DNA of 50,765 nucleotides from an uncultured Oribacterium sp. (GTDB taxonomy: Bacteria > Bacillota > Clostridia > Lachnospirales > Lachnospiraceae): contig CABTMH010000169.1 in assembly GCA_902485915.1 (NCBI GenBank), positions 1 to 50,765 on the forward strand, in the 5' to 3' direction. Of this stretch, positions 3,551 through 36,912 are shown in pieces. The translations under genes and the position numbers were made by a program. Each line of letters opens with the position of its first letter. The first letter of the stretch is position 1. The notes below the pieces were generated by a model, which did not search any database, was not told the origin of the DNA, and saw nothing but the letters and a program-made list of their open reading frames with translations.

Positions 3551-3636
3551 GTTCATAGTCCGTTCATATTTGAACCTGAATGTTAACAGAATGTTCACGT
3601 GCCCCACATACTTTGTTCACCATTGACCTATATATT
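3551..3636 (+). promoter_or_regulatory. 11-bp-phased GTTCAY direct repeats followed by a TATATT -10 (putative response-regulator-activated promoter)
   Basis: GTTCAT at 3551 and 3562; GTTAAC 3582, GTTCAC 3593, degenerate CCACAT 3604, GTTCAC 3615; TATATT at 3631-3636, 10 nt after the last box. Confidence 0.55.
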
Positions 3637-3642
3637 ATAACC

Positions 3643-3742
3643 AAGATAACAAATAAGTTATCGATTTAAGAAGATTTTTTTCATAATACTCGGGCAGGGA
3701 TCGAAGGATCACCTGCCCTCCTCCCTTTTATGGGGCTTTTTT
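3643..3742 (+). ncRNA. Candidate small RNA A (anti-start-codon and anti-SD tracts)
   Basis: ORF-free; 5' hairpin GATAAC/GTTATC, then GATTTTTTTCATAAT, GC hairpin 3692-3718, CTCCTCCC and a T-run. Layout matches candidate B. Confidence 0.6.
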
Positions 3743-3744
3743 CT

Positions 3745-3814
3745 TTACTTTTCTCTCGTCAACCGGCTTCCCGACACGTCTCCATGCCTGATCAGTACAC
3801 GTGTGAACAGTAAC
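3745..3814 (+). repeat. Intergenic REP/MITE-like repeat, copy 1
   Basis: TTACTTTTCTCTCGTCAAC...CCGGCTTCCCGACACG...CCTGATCAGTACACGTGTGAACAGTAAC. Confidence 0.85.
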
Positions 3815-20451: not shown

Positions 20452-21633
20452 ATGAAGAAAAGCAGAAAGCAGATGACCGCCCTGACGCTGGTGCTCAGTA
20501 TGGCGATGTCCGGACAGGCACTCGCCGTGACAGGGGCGACGATCGATTATGCACCGGCGCAGACCTCCTATGAGCGGGAGCGGACGGCAGAGCAGTGGGC
20601 GACGCTGCGCGATCAGGTGATCACCTGGGATGAGCTGCAGGACCTCGTGCATGAGTATAATCCGACGGTGTCGGCGATGTGGCTGAACTATCGGAATAAC
20701 GAGAACAGTGGCACCTACGATCTCGACTACGATGATGTGCTCGACGCCATCGAGAGCACGTATTCGAATTCGCTGGGAAACGGAGACATCTCGGATGCCA
20801 CGGCAGAGATGACCCGGAGTACCTCGCTCGCGGGTATCGAAACGACGATTCAGAATTCGGACCGGCAGATCGTGGAGCTTACGAATCAGAAGACCGAGCA
20901 GAACATGACGGAGGCGATCCGGCAGCAGATCATCGCGATCTATACATCGGAGCTTACGAAGGAGCTCGATCAGCTGACGGCGGAGTATAACGAGACGAAG
21001 ATCGGCGTCGCCGAGCGGAAGCTGCAGGCGGGCACGGGTACGGAGCTCGACGTGCTGACGGCACAGAAGACGGCGAAGGATGCGAAGGCTGCGCTGCAGG
21101 CCGCGACCGCGGATGCCACGAAGGCGCGACAGACCGTGCTCGTGAACCTCGGCTGGAACTACGATGCGACGCCGGAGATCTGTGCGGTGCCGGAGGTGAC
21201 GGAGGAGATGATTTCCGCACTCGATCTCGCCCAGGATACGAAGACGGCACTTCAGAATAATTACCAGCTGAAAATCGATCAGCGGAAGCTCGCGCTGGCC
21301 GAGAGCGACGGCACGAAGAACACGACGCAGATTACCGTGACGAACGACGAGAATCAGGTGCAGTCGAACATGACAGCCCGCTATAACGCCGTTCTGAGTG
21401 CACAGAACGAGCTTCGGAAGGCAGAGCTGAATCTGCAGAATATGCAGACGACGCTCGGACGTGTGACCCGGAGCTACGCAGCAGGCGCGGCGAGTGCGCG
21501 TGATCTCGAAGATGCGCAGTACAGTGCATCGGCGGCAGAGTATACCGTGAAGCTCGATCGCTATGCGCTTCAGAGTGCATACTTCAGCTACCTCGCCGGC
21601 CGGGATGGCCTCGCGGGCAGCAGCGCGTCCTGA
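20452..21633 (+). CDS. TolC/OEP-like secreted coiled-coil protein 1
   Basis: Sec signal peptide ending ALA; OEP-like motifs (RKLQAGTGTELDV, YAAGAASARDL); position in the RND operon. Confidence 0.7.
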   Translation: MKKSRKQMTALTLVLSMAMSGQALAVTGATIDYAPAQTSYERERTAEQWATLRDQVITWDELQDLVHEYNPTVSAMWLNYRNNENSGTYDLDYDDVLDAIESTYSNSLGNGDISDATAEMTRSTSLAGIETTIQNSDRQIVELTNQKTEQNMTEAIRQQIIAIYTSELTKELDQLTAEYNETKIGVAERKLQAGTGTELDVLTAQKTAKDAKAALQAATADATKARQTVLVNLGWNYDATPEICAVPEVTEEMISALDLAQDTKTALQNNYQLKIDQRKLALAESDGTKNTTQITVTNDENQVQSNMTARYNAVLSAQNELRKAELNLQNMQTTLGRVTRSYAAGAASARDLEDAQYSASAAEYTVKLDRYALQSAYFSYLAGRDGLAGSSAS

Positions 21634-21761
21634 CGTAACGGATAAGCATGCATTGGATCGAATCGAGGAAGCACAGGCGTCGTGCCGATGCGCGTGTCCG
21701 CACCGTGCATACAGCATGCCGGATACGGTTCTGATTTGATCCGATGAACAGGAGAGTGACG

Positions 21762-23018
21762 ATGAAGAACAGAACATATATGACCGCGCTTCTGATCCTG
21801 ACGCTCGGTGCCTATGGTTGTGGATCGCCTGCATTGGCCGCGACTACGACCATCAGCCATCCGCTGTACGGTGAAAGCCACACGCTGACGGGGCAGGATA
21901 GCACGGGACGGCCGGATGGGATGGATGACGCCACCTGGGCGGCGCTCATGGATGATGTCATCGAGTACAGCGAGATCCCGGATCTCGTGGAGTACCGGAG
22001 TATCATCGGGCGGACGCAGACGGCGATGATCGATGGACAGGCTGAAGGTATGGGGCAGGTGGTGGATGCGCTGTCGGGTACGATCAGTGATCTGAGAGAC
22101 ACCATCTCGGAGCTCCGGGAAAAGGCGACGGACAGTACGAGCGAGGAAGAGAAGCAGGCGTATCTTATGCAGATAAAGAGCATGGAATATGCCATCAGCT
22201 CCACGAACAGCGCGTCGCCTACCTATGCGAAGAACCAGATGGAAGGCGGTATTTCGACCCTCGTGACGAAGATGAAGCAGGGACTGCACCCGACGAAGGT
22301 GGCCATGATCTCCGGCATGAACAGTGCGTTCGTGGGCTACCAGAGTCTCGTGGAGCTCCGGGAGATGTACGCGGAGCAGGTCGAGATGTACGAAGGGATG
22401 TATGAGCGTGCTGAGCGGCAGCAGGCCCTCGGCTCGGCGACGACCCTCGAGGTACAGCAGGCGAAGGGGAATCTCGAGGGTGTGAAGCTGAGCCTCTCCG
22501 ACACCGAAGAGAAGCTGCGTTCCGTGAAGGATGCCATCGCGCTGACGCTCGGATGGAATGCGGCGGATACCGCGAAGGTGACGATCGGAAAGCTTCCGGC
22601 GTACGACATAAGCTATATGACCGGCCGGAATCTCGACGCGGACATCGCTGAGGCACGGCTCCATAATGTGGCCTATGGCAGCGCGATGAGTACGGTTGAT
22701 AAGAACATCACCGGCTATACCGCGACGGATATCGAGCGGAGATCCGCGGAGCAGAACCTGAACATCACGATGACGGAGCTCTATAACGCGGCCGTGCAGG
22801 CGGGTACAGACTATGAATCGGCGCAGCTCGGCTTCCAGATCGCGGACCGGCAGAAGGCCTCGGCGGAGCGTATGCTGGCTGCCGGCATGATGAGCCTCAC
22901 GGATTATAAGGCAGCATCGATGCAGTATATCGCATCGAAGATGCAGGCGGACATGTCCGCCATCAACGCTTCTCAGGCGGTGCTGAACTACCAGAACGCA
23001 CTGCAGGGCATCCTGTGA
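21762..23018 (+). CDS. TolC/OEP-like secreted coiled-coil protein 2
   Basis: Signal peptide; QQALGSATTLEV and LAAGMMSLTDY; shares W..L.D.VI with protein 1; GGAG RBS before ATG 21762. Confidence 0.7.
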   Translation: MKNRTYMTALLILTLGAYGCGSPALAATTTISHPLYGESHTLTGQDSTGRPDGMDDATWAALMDDVIEYSEIPDLVEYRSIIGRTQTAMIDGQAEGMGQVVDALSGTISDLRDTISELREKATDSTSEEEKQAYLMQIKSMEYAISSTNSASPTYAKNQMEGGISTLVTKMKQGLHPTKVAMISGMNSAFVGYQSLVELREMYAEQVEMYEGMYERAERQQALGSATTLEVQQAKGNLEGVKLSLSDTEEKLRSVKDAIALTLGWNAADTAKVTIGKLPAYDISYMTGRNLDADIAEARLHNVAYGSAMSTVDKNITGYTATDIERRSAEQNLNITMTELYNAAVQAGTDYESAQLGFQIADRQKASAERMLAAGMMSLTDYKAASMQYIASKMQADMSAINASQAVLNYQNALQGIL

Positions 23019-25856: not shown

Positions 25857-26010
25857 TAGGTGGTTGAGTTAATGTAATTTGAAAATAATTTCAAATATAA
25901 GCTGTATTATAAATAGAATTGGTCTGGGCCGGGACGGACAGTCTGCCGTTTTGACTCGTTCACATATCTGTTTGTACATTAACAACATAATAGTGAAGGA
26001 GGAACACAAA

Positions 26011-27552
26011 GTGACCATCGTTATCGTTGTGGCAGTGGCCGTTGTGACAGGCCTCATTATGTTCTTCGCTGGAACAAACAAGGCAAAGAGCGACTTCGAA
26101 AAGACAGTCGGCTCCGCTGAGAAGAAATCCAGAGAGATCATCGATGATGCGATCAGAACAGCTGAGAATAAGAAGCGTGAAGCTCTTCTCGAGACGAAGG
26201 AAGAGGCATTAAAGGCGAAAAACGATCTGGATAAGGAGATCAAGGACCGTCGTAAGGAGGTATCCGATCTCGAGCATCGTATGCTGAAGAGAGAGGAAGC
26301 ATCTGAGAAGAAGGCTGCTTCCCTGGATCAGAAGGAGCAGGAGCTCCGGATGCAGCAGGAGCGGATGCAGAAGAAGGAAGCCGAGATCGACGAGCTGCAT
26401 AATCAGAAGGTGACGGAGCTCGAGCGTGTATCCGGTCTCACGAGAGATCAGGCGAAGTCAGAGCTTCTGAAGTCCCTCGAAGAGGACACGAAGCACGATT
26501 ATGCGAAGATGATTCGCGAGTATGATAATCAGGCGAAGGAAGAGGCGGAGAAGAGCGCCCGCAACTACATCGTGGATGCGATTCAGCGCTGTGCAGCCGA
26601 TCAGGTGACCGAGTCGACCGTTTCCGTCGTGCAGCTTCCGAATGATGATATGAAGGGCCGCATCATCGGCCGTGAGGGACGTAATATTCGTACACTGGAG
26701 CAGCTGACCGGCGTAGAGCTGATCGTCGACGATACGCCGGAGGCGGTTGTTCTTTCCGGATTTGATCCGGTGCGTCGTGAGGTCGCCAGAATCGCCCTCG
26801 AGAAGCTCATCGTCGATGGACGTATCCATCCGGCGAGAATCGAAGAGGTCGTAGAGAAGGCACAGAAGGAAGTCGACGAAACCATCCGTGAGGAGGGTGA
26901 TGCCGCTGTCCTCGAGGTCGGCGTACACGGTCTGAATCCGGAGCTGGTGAAGCTTCTCGGTCGTATGAAGTTCCGTACCTCCTATGGTCAGAATGCACTT
27001 CGTCACTCCGTGGAGGTCGCACAGATTTCCGGACTCCTCGCCGAGGAGCTCGGACTCGACGTTCGTATGGCGAAGAGAGCCGGTCTGCTGCATGATATCG
27101 GTAAGGCCATCGACCACGATATGGAAGGAACGCATGTCCAGCTCGGCGTCGATCTCTGCAAGAAGTATCATGAGCCGGAGGTGGTCATCAACACCGTGGC
27201 ATCACATCATGGCGGTACCGAGCCGACATCCCTGATTGCCTGTCTCGTCGCCGCAGCCGATGCGATTTCCGCAGCTCGTCCGGGCGCACGTCGTAAGTCT
27301 CTCGAGACCTACACGAATCGTCTGAAGGAACTCGAGGATATCACGAACTCCTACAAGGGCGTAGAGAAGTCCTTCGCCGTTCAGGCCGGACGAGAAGTGC
27401 GTATCATGGTTGTCCCGGATCAGGTATCCGACGATGATATGACCATCATGGCACACGATATCGCGAAGCAGATCCAGGATCAGATGCAGTATCCTGGCGT
27501 CATCAAGGTCAACGTGATCCGCGAATCCCGTGCCGTAGACTACGCGAAGTAA
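26011..27552 (+). CDS. rny: Ribonuclease Y
   Basis: N-terminal TM, coiled coil, KH domain ([13 protein letters not shown]), HD domain (LLHDIGKA); GTG start after AAGGAGG. Confidence 0.97.
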
Positions 27553-27578
27553 ACAGAATCAATCATCATATGATGTAG

Positions 27579-27614
27579 AGAAATCCCTGCAGGCGATGCC
27601 CTGCAGGGATTTCT
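27579..27614. terminator. Terminator hairpin after rny
   Basis: AGAAATCCCTGCAGG-cgatgc-CCTGCAGGGATTTCT. Confidence 0.8.
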
Positions 27615-27623
27615 TACTATATA

Positions 27624-27731
27624 GTTACGGTGCACGCGTCAACTGTCCTCCGGCAGGGGCGTGTCGGTCCTCCGTCCTGCTACCGGCTTCCCGACACGCC
27701 CCTGCCGGATCAGTACACGAGCGAACAGTTC
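27624..27731 (+). repeat. Intergenic repeat, copy 5 (full length, perfect 19-bp inner stem)
   Basis: TCCGGCAGGGGCGTGTCGG (27649-27667) pairs with CCGACACGCCCCTGCCGGA (27691-27709); ends GATCAGTACACGAGCGAACAG. Confidence 0.9.
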
Positions 27732-27857
27732 TCCTGAAATGAGGAGACCCCGGTGAAGCCGAAGCTCCACCGGGGCAATTATGAAAAATCTATCAATTGG
27801 AGAAAAATACCAACATTCATGTTGCACAGAACGCTTTCTTCATCTAACTTTCTGTAC
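27727..27857 (-). ncRNA. Candidate small RNA B (apparent paralogue of A)
   Basis: Minus strand: 5' stem TGTACAGAA/TTCTGTGCA, then GATTTTTCATAAT, 12-bp stem CCCCGGTGGAGC-TTCG-GCTTCACCGGGG, then CTCCTC. Confidence 0.6.
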
Positions 27858-27863
27858 ATTGTT

Positions 27864-27896
27864 AATATAATCTCGAAATATGAATAAATTATGAAC
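27864..27896 (-). promoter_or_regulatory. GTTCAT-N5-ATTCAT repeat, 10 nt, TATATT -10 (promoter of candidate sRNA B)
   Basis: Minus strand GTTCAT(27896)-aattt-ATTCAT(27885), 10 nt, TATATT(27869-27864); same spacing as at 3615-3636. Confidence 0.55.
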
Positions 27897-28003
27897 AAAC
27901 GGTAAATGTTTTTGCTTTTTGAAATATTTCGACTGATTGAGTTGCTGTCGCATTTGTGGTAACGTATAACAAGTAAACTTAGCTTTATCTGTTAGGAGAA
28001 TAC

Positions 28004-29722
28004 ATGCCGAAAAATAAAACACTGATCCCGCATAACACGGAGCGTGAGGTGCTGGTCACGGGCCATCGTAACCCGGATACCGACTCCATCTGCGCTGCGA
28101 TCGCATACGCAAACCTGAAAAATAAAATCACCGGCAGCTGTAAGTACATCCCTTGTCGCGCCGGCGAGCCATCCCGTGAGACCGCCTTCGTTCTCGATTA
28201 CTTCGAGGTTCCGGAACCACGGCTGATCACCACCGTAAAGACCCAGGTCTCCGATATCGAGTACCGTCAGACCCCGGGTGTAAATAAAAACATGTCCCTC
28301 AAGAAGGCATGGACCATGATGAACGAGGGCAATGTCGTCACCCTTCCAGTCGTCACGAAACGGAACGCCCTGGAAGGCGTCATCACCATCGGCGATATCG
28401 CGAAGTCATATTTTAATGTCTATGACTCGCAGATCATCTCGAAGGCGCATACACAGTTTTCAAACATCCAGGAAACACTGGAAGCGACCGTCGTTACCGG
28501 TGATGTCAAGCGCTTCTGCACCGAGGGAAAGGTGCTGATCGCAGCCGCCAACCCGGAGATGATGTCCTACTATATCGAGAAGCACGACATCGTCCTCCTC
28601 GGAAACCGTGCGGAGAATCAGCTCTCTGCGATGGATAACGGTGCCGACTGCATCATCATCTGTGAGGGTGCGGATGTTTCTCCGACCATCAAGGCACTGG
28701 CCGAGCAGAACGGTATGATCATCATGGTCACCAGCTACGACGCCTATACCGCAGCGCGACTCATCAACCAGTCGATGCCGATCAACTACTTCATGACGGA
28801 GGATAATCTGATTACCTTCACCGAGGACGACTTCGTGGATGATATCCATGACATCATGGCGAGCAAGCGTCACCGTGATTTCCCGGTCCTCAGTAAGGAC
28901 GGTTCCTACCTCGGTATGATTTCCCGCCGAAATCTCCTCGGAAATCATGGCAAGCAGGTCATCCTCGTGGATCATAACGAAGCCGGACAGGCGGTCGAGG
29001 GCATCGAATCTGCCGACATCCTCGAGATCATCGATCACCATAAGATCGGTGCCGTGCAGACCATGTCCCCGGTATACTTCCGAAACCAGCCGCTCGGCTG
29101 CTGCTCGACGATCATCACGATGATGTACCGTGAGAGTGGCGTGGAGATCGATCGTACGACGGCCGGTCTTCTGATGTCTGCGATCATCTCTGATACCCTG
29201 CTCTTCCGTTCGCCGACCTGCACGCCGAAGGATGAGAAGACCGCACGTGAGCTTGCGGAGATCGTCGGTGTCGACATCGAGAAGTACGCCTTCGATATGT
29301 TCTCCGCCGGCTCGAACCTGAAGGGGAAAACCATCAAGGAAATCTTCTACCAGGATTTCAAGCACTTCAAGGCCGGCAAGGTCGACTTCGGTGTCAGCCA
29401 GGTAACCTCCCTGAATAAGGAAGAGCTCGAAAGCATGAAGGACGCGCTGGAGGATTTCGCCCTCGAGGCGATGAAGATCGAGGGAATCGACATGAGCTTC
29501 ATCATGCTGACGAACATCCTCGAGCGCAGTACCGACCTCCTGGCCATCGGATCCGGCGCAGGCCCGCTCGTGAATACTGCCTTCGCCGTAGAATCAGTGC
29601 GGAGACCTGCACGAAGCGAAGGCGAGAAGGCAGTCGATGCCTGGTCCGTCGAGCTTCCGGGTGTTGTTTCACGTAAGAAGCAGCTCGTGCCACAGCTGAC
29701 CCTTTTCGCAGAGCAGCTGTAA
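28004..29722 (+). CDS. ppaC: Mn-dependent family II inorganic pyrophosphatase with a CBS-DRTGG-CBS insert
   Basis: Motifs GHRNPDTDS, LVDHNE, IIDHH, AIISDTL and GVVSRKKQ. Confidence 0.93.
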   Translation: MPKNKTLIPHNTEREVLVTGHRNPDTDSICAAIAYANLKNKITGSCKYIPCRAGEPSRETAFVLDYFEVPEPRLITTVKTQVSDIEYRQTPGVNKNMSLKKAWTMMNEGNVVTLPVVTKRNALEGVITIGDIAKSYFNVYDSQIISKAHTQFSNIQETLEATVVTGDVKRFCTEGKVLIAAANPEMMSYYIEKHDIVLLGNRAENQLSAMDNGADCIIICEGADVSPTIKALAEQNGMIIMVTSYDAYTAARLINQSMPINYFMTEDNLITFTEDDFVDDIHDIMASKRHRDFPVLSKDGSYLGMISRRNLLGNHGKQVILVDHNEAGQAVEGIESADILEIIDHHKIGAVQTMSPVYFRNQPLGCCSTIITMMYRESGVEIDRTTAGLLMSAIISDTLLFRSPTCTPKDEKTARELAEIVGVDIEKYAFDMFSAGSNLKGKTIKEIFYQDFKHFKAGKVDFGVSQVTSLNKEELESMKDALEDFALEAMKIEGIDMSFIMLTNILERSTDLLAIGSGAGPLVNTAFAVESVRRPARSEGEKAVDAWSVELPGVVSRKKQLVPQLTLFAEQL

Positions 29723-35502: not shown

Positions 35503-35616
35503 TTGTTCATAAAAACGTCATAATGGTGAGAGAAGCTATCATCTGCTGTGAATATCGCACAGATTACATTTCTTATTTTTGTACACTATGATAAAAGTGA
35601 ATAATAATTGTGAACA

Positions 35617-35684
35617 AAATGTTAAAATAGTACGGCAAATGTCAGAATTTTCCTCTGTCTCGACGCAGAATTGTTCTTTATAAT
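35617..35684 (+). promoter_or_regulatory. Putative activator-dependent TRAP promoter with a 20-bp-spaced direct repeat
   Basis: AAATGTTAAAAT (35617) and AAATGTCAGAAT (35637); TATAAT at 35679 with a poor -35. Confidence 0.45.
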
Positions 35685-35751: not shown

Positions 35752-36912
35752 ATGAAGAAGAGAATCTTAAGTGGCGTTCTCGCCGCAACCATGGTTGCAT
35801 CCCTTGCAGCCTGTGGCTCATCCAAGCCGGCTGAGACTACTGCAGCAGCTACTACGGCAGCAGCTACGGAGGCAGCTACCGAGGCAGCTGCTGAGGAGAC
35901 CACTGCAGCAGCAGAGGAGAAGGCTACCGAGGCCGCAGCAGACGGTGAGTACACTGTGAACGAGGCTGCAGCAGCTGACCCGGCTGTTACCCTGACCATG
36001 GCAGAGGTTAACCCGCTCGAGGGTACCATCTGCGGACAGATGGATACCAAGTTTAAGGAGGCTGTTGAGGCGATCTCCGGTGGTTCCATCACCATCGACC
36101 TTCAGGCATCCGGCGTACTCGGCGCAGAGCAGGACGTTCTTGACTCTATGCTCGGCGGTGGCGGAGACATCGATATGTCCCGTATCTCTGCATTCGCTCT
36201 GACTTCCTACGGCGCATCCAAGTCCGTTCTTCTTTCTCTCCCGTACGTTTTCGAGTCCAGAGAGCATTTCTGGAACTTCGTACACAGCGATCTCGGCGCA
36301 GAGATTCTGAACGAGTCTGAGGAGGCTGGTGTTGGTATCAAGGGCCTCTTCTACGGCGAGGAGGGCTTCAGACACTTCTTCACAGTTGAGAGCAAGCCGG
36401 TTTCTACCGTTGCTGATCTTAAGAACATGAAGATCCGTGTTTCTAACGACCCGATCATGCAGAAGATGGTTTCTTCTCTCGGTGCAAACCCTGCATCTGT
36501 TTCCATGACCGAGCTTTACTCCGCACTTCAGACAAACACGGTGGATGGTGCTGGTCAGCCGATCGCAAACTATGCTTCCAACCGTTTCGACGAGGTAGGT
36601 CCGAACCTTACACTGGATGGTCACACACTGGGCGCAATCGAGGTTGTTATCTCTGATGAGTCCTGGAACAACAAGCTGACCGACAACCAGAGAGACGTTA
36701 TCACCGAGGCTTCCAAGATCGCTTCTGATTACTGCCAGAAGATCGCTGCTGAGACAGAGGAGAAGGTTCTCGAGGAGCTCAAGGGCCGTGGCTGCAACGT
36801 CATCGAGATCGCTGATAAGTCCGAGTGGGAGGCTGCATGCGCACCGATCACCGAGGAGTATGCTACCGGCGAGCTTAAGGATGTGCTTGATCAGATCAAG
36901 GCACTTGCTTAA
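35752..36912 (+). CDS. dctP: TRAP transporter substrate-binding lipoprotein (DctP family)
   Basis: Lipobox LAAC, Ala/Thr/Glu linker, LSLPYVF, GFRHF, DLKNMKIRV, ELYSALQT. Confidence 0.93.
   Translation: MKKRILSGVLAATMVASLAACGSSKPAETTAAATTAAATEAATEAAAEETTAAAEEKATEAAADGEYTVNEAAAADPAVTLTMAEVNPLEGTICGQMDTKFKEAVEAISGGSITIDLQASGVLGAEQDVLDSMLGGGGDIDMSRISAFALTSYGASKSVLLSLPYVFESREHFWNFVHSDLGAEILNESEEAGVGIKGLFYGEEGFRHFFTVESKPVSTVADLKNMKIRVSNDPIMQKMVSSLGANPASVSMTELYSALQTNTVDGAGQPIANYASNRFDEVGPNLTLDGHTLGAIEVVISDESWNNKLTDNQRDVITEASKIASDYCQKIAAETEEKVLEELKGRGCNVIEIADKSEWEAACAPITEEYATGELKDVLDQIKALA

Follow-up and report, generated by a model that had tools for sequence, protein, structure and literature searches.

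A conserved candidate small-RNA gene between rny and ppaC of an uncultured Oribacterium, with predicted anti-start-codon and anti-Shine-Dalgarno tracts on either side of a hairpin

What is encoded between rny and ppaC of an uncultured Oribacterium sp. (Lachnospiraceae)? The 50,765-nt contig CABTMH010000169.1 (assembly GCA_902485915.1), the whole of which is referred to here as the window, carries in this interval a sequence that a sequence-only reading had taken for a small RNA (sRNA) of the minus strand, sRNA B. It was thought to repeat the design of a second one in the same window, sRNA A, with the same promoter geometry, 5′ stem, single-stranded tract, GC stem, and CUCCUC. Each of these elements could be located by coordinate on the minus strand. 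As judged from comparison with related genomes, sRNA B is very probably a real RNA gene on that strand, and at the sequence level it is demonstrably a conserved unit across many Lachnospiraceae. Its parts are the following (window positions):

27736–27860, minus strand: sRNA B, as matched by its covariance model (114 bits, E 1.8e-20)
27906–27901, 27895–27890, and 27884–27879, minus strand: three direct-repeat boxes (TTTACC, TTCATA, and TTCATA) with an 11-bp period, presumed to be an OmpR/PhoB-type response-regulator array
27869–27864, minus strand: −10 element TATATT, 9 nt past the last box
27857–27852 with 27829–27824, minus strand: 5′ stem-loop GUACAG/CUGUGC with one U-G pair; within the genus its sequence varies and its pairing is kept
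27793–27777, minus strand: AUAGAUUUUUCAUAAUU tract (anti-start-codon), predicted to be unpaired, complementary to AAUUAUGAAAAAUCUAU, with CAU at 27783–27781
27790–27777, minus strand: GAUUUUUCAUAAUU, part of the anti-AUG tract region
27775–27748, minus strand: 28-nt GC hairpin of 12 pairs with a UUCG loop and one internal G-U, and with a possible extra closing pair G27776-U27747
27747–27737, minus strand: UCUCCUCAUUU tail (anti-Shine-Dalgarno) with the invariant CUCCUC, likely the 3′ end region

The RNA would begin near G27857 and end near 27734–27737, which corresponds to a length of about 120–125 nt. The 5′ stem is followed by an A/U-rich stretch that runs into AUAGAUUUUUCAUAAUU. The predicted fold of the minus strand (−38.5 kcal/mol; z −3.1) is more stable than that of the plus strand (−31.8 kcal/mol); both CAU within AUAGAUUUUUCAUAAUU and CUCCUC lie outside the predicted helices, with the hairpin between them. 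The interval originally assigned to the element, 27727–27857, was appropriate for the RNA core but not for the stretch downstream of 27733, which belongs to a dispersed repeat outside the RNA.

A covariance model built from 20 same-genus sequences detected one copy each in 32 of 50 same-genus genomes. By blastn over 61 related genomes, sRNA B was matched in 20 of 36 genomes of the genus; 24 genomes that represent 24 other families of the order gave no match. In a collection of species representatives, at least 120 records contained the exact core pattern, and those among the matches listed were overwhelmingly from Lachnospiraceae (Hungatella hathewayi, Enterocloster lavalensis, [Clostridium] asparagiforme, Lacrimispora, and Oribacterium). 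The core was present in 6 of 150 other genera, each sampled with one genome; thus, the element marks a sub-clade of the Lachnospiraceae, not the whole family. All further comparisons of the family are based on 99 distinct B-type sequences. Invariant in every one of them were AUUUUUCAUAAUU, the CCC..GGGG base of the stem, and CUCCUC, and AUAG just 5′ of AUUUUUCAUAAUU was conserved in at least 90%, while the flanks diverged: sequence likeness sets in at the boxes and is lost immediately past CUCCUCAUUU at the tail. Within the 2.19-Mb genome, the pattern TTTTCATAAT-N20-50-YCTCCTC was found exactly twice, at sRNA A and sRNA B (reversed control, 0), and TTTTCATAAT with up to one mismatch occurred nine times in the window (1.6 expected). 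Rfam 15 contained no family for the element when the whole window was scanned at the gathering score, positions 27500–28050 at E ≤10, and three sibling loci at E ≤1, nor was a report of it found in a literature search (supplements and subscription journals were outside its reach). Several "cleanbin" records in which the element occurs bear titles such as Prevotella, Bacteroidaceae, and Succinatimonas (L076, L097, L098, L116, L123, and L147 among those listed); these bin labels are probably wrong.

The orientation of the gene had been deduced from the UUCG tetraloop and a single G-U pair, and this argument gained considerably in weight across the family. The hairpins of the 99 sequences contain 128 G-U pairs when read in the minus sense, compared with 15 in the antisense; GNRA or UUCG tetraloops are present in 44 and 2 of the sequences, respectively. 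Mean hairpin energy was −19.98 kcal/mol in the minus sense and −17.72 kcal/mol in the opposite sense, the minus sense being more stable in 77 sequences, equal in 8, and less stable in 14. The 5′ region showed no overall strand bias. On a MAFFT alignment, 82.6% of the hairpin positions were paired as predicted, compared with 76.2% after shuffling, and none of 500 shuffles attained the real value. The base of the hairpin (CCCC/GGGG) is invariant and its top covaries: double changes are present in seven pairs, and covariation was scored at 0.202 versus 0.116 for shuffled alignments (again reached by none of 500; best slid control, 0.167), figures that overstate independence because the sequences are related.

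These data bear on two readings of the locus without a minus-strand RNA. According to the first, the conserved sequence is a DNA-level operator cluster with a stray hairpin or terminator and no RNA product; the boxes are indeed motifs of the DNA, and a TTCATA is found within the conserved tract of the RNA as well. However, the hairpin covaries and is strand-asymmetric, the best-conserved block lies 60–110 nt downstream of a well-placed −10 element, and the module recurs at unlinked loci, all of which makes this reading highly unlikely. According to the second, which had been named at the outset as the alternative to be reckoned with, the functional unit is a plus-strand small open reading frame (ORF) of 29 codons starting at 27781, with its Shine-Dalgarno (SD) sequence GAGGAGA brought beside the AUG by the hairpin. 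GAGGAG would be ∼6 nt from the AUG when the hairpin is closed, and the start ATG AAA AAT is present in 99 of 99 sequences. Beyond its start, however, the ORF is not conserved: its length ranges between 7 and 42 codons with only MKN(L) kept, its first 18 nt are identical in 64 of the 99 sequences with zero synonymous variation, it contains 4-nt indels within the genus, G-U pairs of the minus strand turn into A-C mismatches on this one, and its counterpart in sRNA A has only eight codons. To this coding function we attach hardly any probability.

That sRNA B has siblings became evident already within the window, where sRNA A is composed of the corresponding parts:

3616–3729, plus strand: sRNA A, with last box TTCACC, 9 nt, TATATT, 5′ stem, GAUUUUUUUCAUAAU, hairpin, and UCCUCCCUUUU; as a candidate it is delimited at 3619–3728
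3616–3621 and 3631–3636, plus strand: last box TTCACC and −10 element TATATT, with 9 nt between them
3645–3650 with 3657–3662, plus strand: 5′ stem of GATAAC with GTTATC
3673–3687, plus strand: anti-AUG tract GAUUUUUUUCAUAAU
3692–3718, plus strand: hairpin, different in sequence from that of sRNA B, followed by the UCCUCCCUUUU tail with CUCCUC

The A type occurs once in each of 47 genomes of the genus (of 50 examined) and was present in 15 of 300 other genera, a count obtained by manual reading of 19 pattern matches, three of which were dropped as spurious for want of the hairpin and CUCCUC. A generic sibling pattern yielded 15 matches in five genomes (control, 1). Twelve were true siblings, all of them with box arrays, a −10 element, a short 5′ part, UUUUUCAUAAU, a hairpin, and CUCCUC. 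Four are carried by [C.] asparagiforme, three by Clostridium sp. AT4, two each by H. hathewayi and Lacrimispora sinapis, and one by a further genome of the same family (G124), so that the expected multicopy character was borne out by two to four copies in each of the four complete relatives. Three types of sibling (A, B, and C) can be told apart by their stems, while both single-stranded tracts are retained; divergence of the stems around preserved anti-AUG and anti-SD tracts, first noticed between A and B, therefore extends across the family. What adjoins the A- and C-type genes is variable (a sodium:alanine symporter gene adjoins 7 of 14 A loci, the rest being diverse), which indicates that these are stand-alone, independent genes. 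The existence of a multicopy family with a shared promoter design is thus firmly established at the level of sequence comparison.

The promoter design itself consists of three to four boxes with an 11-bp period, 9 nt, and a −10 element, and it was found in the 99 distinct B-type sequences and likewise at A- and C-type loci. There are four boxes in the family consensus (TTCATA, TTTACA, TTCATA, and TTCAYA); four are also present in most other genera, compared with three in sRNA B. The −10 element is TATACT in 63 of the 99 sequences, TATATT in 23, and a different hexamer in 13. When the whole genome was ranked with a 55-nt matrix derived from the B-type promoters, sRNA B scored 52.1 bits and sRNA A, at 18.0 bits, was second-best, followed by a weak site with 8.6 bits, in support of a promoter geometry common to both. 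A four-box matrix discriminated poorly and missed sRNA B itself; a strict promoter pattern matched, in four genomes, the B loci and one further site. A simple scan called no canonical sigma-70 promoter at the sRNA A or B locus, and there is no −35 element. Direct hexamer repeats with an 11-bp period that abut a −10 element in place of a −35 element are the layout of promoters activated by OmpR/PhoB-type regulators, and such a response regulator presumably drives the sRNA B promoter. No two-component genes flank any of the sRNA copies examined (neighbourhoods of B, A, and C type). The boxes may resemble the repeats of Bacillus PhoP, of HitR, and of staphylococcal HssR, the last more closely than that of PhoP.

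Box arrays were also seen elsewhere. A looser search of the complete relatives gave three extra GTTCAYA-N4-RTTCAYA box pairs with no sRNA module behind them (L261 = G076:C1:3790868, L259, and L260), which may be further members of the regulon. In the window, a box pair TTAACA-N5-TTCACA followed by TTCAC (35609–35625, minus strand) adjoins a lipoprotein gene starting near 35752 on the plus strand. On another contig of this genome (C208, ∼20852–20930), TTTACA-N5-TTTACA, then a further TTTACA, 9 nt, and TAGTAT lie upstream of a PstS-like lipoprotein gene (PBP_like_2; 21025–21993). The geometry there, box-N9-minus-10, is that of the sRNA promoters, and the gene is among the top predicted targets of sRNA B; these boxes may be a Pho box.

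How might such an RNA act? The mechanism that we consider fairly probable as a whole is that of a multicopy, trans-acting, response-regulator-driven sRNA directed against translation initiation, with lipoproteins and solute-binding proteins as targets. An OmpR/PhoB-type regulator would bind the 11-bp-spaced TTCAYA boxes standing in for the −35 element and activate the −10 element 9 nt downstream. The resulting RNA of ∼120 nt would consist of a variable 5′ stem-loop, the anti-start-codon tract, the GC hairpin, and the pyrimidine-rich anti-SD tail, and both tracts would clamp SD and AUG together around a three-way junction, thereby blocking 30S binding. Its main targets would be mRNAs of exported lipoproteins, mostly solute-binding proteins of transporters. 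The geometry agrees with this: the tracts flanking the hairpin are the reverse complement of a contiguous initiation region, GAGGAGA and then AAUUAUGAAAAA, so that simultaneous clamping of SD and AUG is possible. Read from 3′ to 5′, tail plus tract are the complement of GAGGAGA directly joined to AAUUAUGAAAAAUCUAU, the hairpin projecting at the junction.

The base pairing and the targets of sRNA B were predicted by scoring the joined arms with duplexfold against 5036 candidate start regions of this genome (threshold, −20 kcal/mol). At or below the threshold were 189 of the 5036 start regions, compared with 30 for the reversed arms and 37–154 in five shuffles; the corresponding number for sRNA A was 255 (control, 70), and the target scores of A and B correlate (r = 0.63). 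The best match of sRNA B (−29.8 kcal/mol) is an SBP_bac_3 lipoprotein gene at position 1842 of contig C35, whose 20-nt start region would, by manual reading, pair with both arms without a gap; other top matches are NlpA, DctP, ABC_sub_bind, SBP_bac_5, and the PstS-like protein. In this genome, start regions of this kind are characteristic of exported lipoproteins: starts of the form ATTATGAARAA occur in 9 of 170 lipobox-like candidates but only in 2 of 4866 others, as called with crude criteria for genes and lipoboxes.

Several observations weigh against this mechanism or parts of it. Of 16 sequencing runs found, all in the form of contigs (shares, 0.00–0.24), four yielded six contigs of relatives on the rny-to-ppaC stretch; these show neither transcript ends nor a strand and so speak neither for nor against the predicted transcription of sRNA B. 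A simple scan called no canonical terminator with a U-run at the A or B locus, where a pyrimidine tract follows the hairpin, and a canonical terminator within 160 nt was present at 24 of 99 loci, at scattered distances (control stretches, 3 of 95); the 3′ end of sRNA B is therefore uncertain. On the B-type covariance model sRNA A scored 14.3 bits (E 1.9), third-best in the window and not significant, so that the assignment of A and B to the same family holds for design, promoter, and both tracts but does not extend to alignable homology. Among the predictions, one shuffle came near the real arms (154 versus 189 start regions), and enrichment of lipobox genes in the top 25 targets of sRNA B was modest (7, compared with 4 for the reversed arms). 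No single target with long complementarity was found in four complete genomes searched for AATTATGAAAAATCTAT with up to two mismatches; exact matches were restricted to the sRNA loci, and there were 12 other matches versus 8 in the control. Seventeen invariant nt plus an invariant stem base, across genera, exceed what short seed pairing needs and could reflect a protein partner instead. Finally, the synteny of ∼90% between the B type and ppaC hints at a local role that goes beyond the proposed mechanism, and ppaC, considered as a trans target, ranked only 3187 of 5036 in this genome. With a mean duplex energy of −14.3 kcal/mol at its start site over 67 species, compared with −12.4 kcal/mol for the reversed arms and −13.2 kcal/mol for the background, ppaC was rejected as such a target.

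The invariance across genera, together with the lack of a long-complementarity target and the modest target statistics, could be accommodated by a sponge or scaffold RNA, the invariant tracts and stem base of which serve as a protein platform and resemble an anti-initiation device only incidentally. In the siblings, however, UUUUUCAUAAU and CUCCUC are kept while the stem is wholly changed, which argues that the tracts matter and not the shape; tract order and polarity exactly mirror SD and then AUG, and no candidate protein is encoded near the copies examined. Such a protein-binding role appears improbable compared with pairing to initiation regions.

The synteny leads to the two genes that border the interval:

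25879–27552, plus strand: rny, encoding RNase Y domains, on one flank of the sRNA B interval
28004–29722, plus strand: ppaC-like pyrophosphatase gene (DHH, DRTGG, CBS, and DHHA2 domains), divergent from sRNA B and a conserved neighbour outside the RNA

A ppaC-like gene of the DHH family lies divergently within 700 nt at 70 of 78 B loci, which suggests a shared or reciprocal control region. In many genera the ppaC ATG is ∼20 nt from box 1, so that the promoter of ppaC has to overlap either these boxes or that of the sRNA, and the sRNA −10 region, when read manually on the opposite strand, offers a possible −10 element there. The RNA or its promoter region could act locally on ppaC, either through a switch, formed by the box array and overlapping −10 elements, in which regulator binding turns the sRNA on and ppaC off, or by cis-antisense pairing with a ppaC transcript whose start lies within the sRNA gene or past it. 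Yet this neighbour is missing at 8 of the 78 B loci, A- and C-type siblings are built alike with no ppaC in their vicinity, and in this genome the boxes are ∼100 nt farther from ppaC. Conservation ends at the 3′ edge of the sRNA, leaving no conserved ppaC-sense promoter beyond it, and the G-U pairs and tetraloops of the hairpin disfavour a functional plus-strand RNA. Local action on ppaC is, like the protein platform, an option of low probability, and trans-acting control of initiation is preferred to both.

A more specific version of the trans-acting mechanism, which we put forward tentatively and hold to be rather doubtful in its entirety, would make the sRNA B family a mimic of the initiation machinery. 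The tail would copy the anti-SD end of 16S rRNA, the CAU tract the initiator anticodon, and a rigid hairpin would align both; two to four copies under an envelope- or phosphate-responsive regulator would shut off synthesis of MKK-type lipoproteins and transporter-binding proteins, with sRNA B and ppaC forming a back-to-back reciprocal switch.

What follows the RNA on its 3′ side is a mobile-looking sequence:

27617–27732, strand unspecified: dispersed repeat, just beyond the 3′ edge of sRNA B and outside the RNA

It has ∼100 partial copies in the genome, one of them in the window at 3762–3811, downstream of sRNA A, and contains a 19-bp inverted repeat (27649–27667 and 27691–27709) and a conserved GATCAGTACACG..GAACAGT end. 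In contigs of relatives that lie on the rny-to-ppaC stretch, 67 or 136 other letters replace positions 27617–27732, and likeness resumes at 27733/27734. Its absence from these contigs makes it look like an insertion resembling repetitive extragenic palindromes (REP) or miniature inverted-repeat transposable elements (MITE), and its opposite relative orientation near A indicates that it is not part of the RNA. CUCCUC was also considered as the 5′ arm of a terminator, which fits only 5 of 99 loci. The rny terminator hairpin (27579–27614) is symmetric and could stop both strands; it would be the next stop for any transcript of sRNA B that runs past its own hairpin and across the repeat. An A-type sibling of [C.] asparagiforme (L240 1439–1545, minus strand) has a canonical terminator ∼40 nt past CUCCUC, so that the RNA there may be extended by ∼60 nt and CUCCUC would be left unpaired with a hairpin on either side. 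The sole Rfam family above threshold in the window is an S10-Clostridia ribosomal protein leader (RF03136; 50251–50423, plus strand; 41.2 bits).

The Lachnospiraceae are among the dominant bacterial families of gut and rumen, and to our knowledge almost nothing is known about their regulation by small RNAs. As promoter, structure, and pairing tracts are apparent from the sequence itself, the sRNA B family offers directly testable handles. It also raises the questions of which two-component system drives it, whether a clamp split by a hairpin blocks initiation, and why one copy is locked to ppaC. If correct, the split clamp would be a class-specific shut-off for MKK-type lipoproteins in a major gut and rumen clade of this family.

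Known sRNAs resemble it to different degrees. RsaD (RF01819) matched an A-type sibling of [C.] asparagiforme with 34.1 bits, below the gathering score of 50, and matched neither A nor B of this genome in the Rfam scans of the window. With RsaD and the C-rich staphylococcal Rsa sRNAs the general layout is common (stem-loop, pyrimidine-rich single strand, and terminator); the RsaD alignment itself rests on generic hairpins and the U-run. The enterobacterial OmrA and OmrB have a conserved pairing end and divergent middles; their genes are adjacent, and they depend on Hfq and pair via their 5′ ends. They are OmpR-activated siblings (PMC12692685) and as such resemble the sRNA B family as paralogues under one OmpR-type regulator, which for sRNA B is presumed. 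They are unlike it in sequence and in having no clamp of anti-SD plus anti-AUG.

Among Gram-positive relatives in function, the LhrC RNAs of Listeria monocytogenes have an oligopeptide-binding protein among their targets and use UCCC motifs that recur in loops and in unpaired stretches. LhrC1-5 are described as multicopy, controlled by LisR of an OmpR-family two-component system (cell-envelope stress and heme), and repressing surface or lipoprotein mRNAs by pairing with the ribosome-binding site (PMC4132741, PMC5880928). LhrC is not known to have an anti-AUG tract, and its promoter boxes are different; sRNA B has a single CUCCUC tract and no Rfam match.

The closest functional analogue, as judged by design, is the csRNA family of Streptococcus (ccnA-E). 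According to PMC3091779, csRNAs occur in several copies per genome, measure ∼50–200 nt, and are controlled by CiaR, whose direct repeat, (N)TTAAG-N5-TTTAAG with an 11-bp period, replaces the −35 element 10 nt upstream of the −10 element; they carry anti-SD and anti-AUG (CAU) sequences in unpaired form, which presumably block the initiation of translation. On this description, sibling copies, an 11-bp repeat of response-regulator type near the −10 element, and unpaired anti-SD and anti-AUG sequences (predicted in sRNA B) are common to both. The boxes and spacers differ (TTTAAG and 10 nt, compared with TTCAYA/TTTACA and 9 nt), and the csRNA tracts share the region from the 5′ stem-loop to the terminator, whereas in sRNA B the GC hairpin separates them and the anti-SD is located in the tail at the 3′ end. 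The hosts differ as well, Streptococcus versus Lachnospiraceae (Clostridia), and one copy of the sRNA B family is syntenic with ppaC. The csRNA models of Rfam gave no match, irrespective of whether 27500–28050 (E ≤10), the whole window (gathering score), or three sibling loci (E ≤1) were scanned. Different boxes, a different host taxon, split tracts, and no Rfam similarity exclude membership in the csRNA and LhrC families. By its sequence, the sRNA B family is new and widely conserved, of a functional kind already known but with an unusual split-clamp layout; it is a candidate for a new Rfam family and would represent an independent, convergent counterpart of the streptococcal csRNAs.

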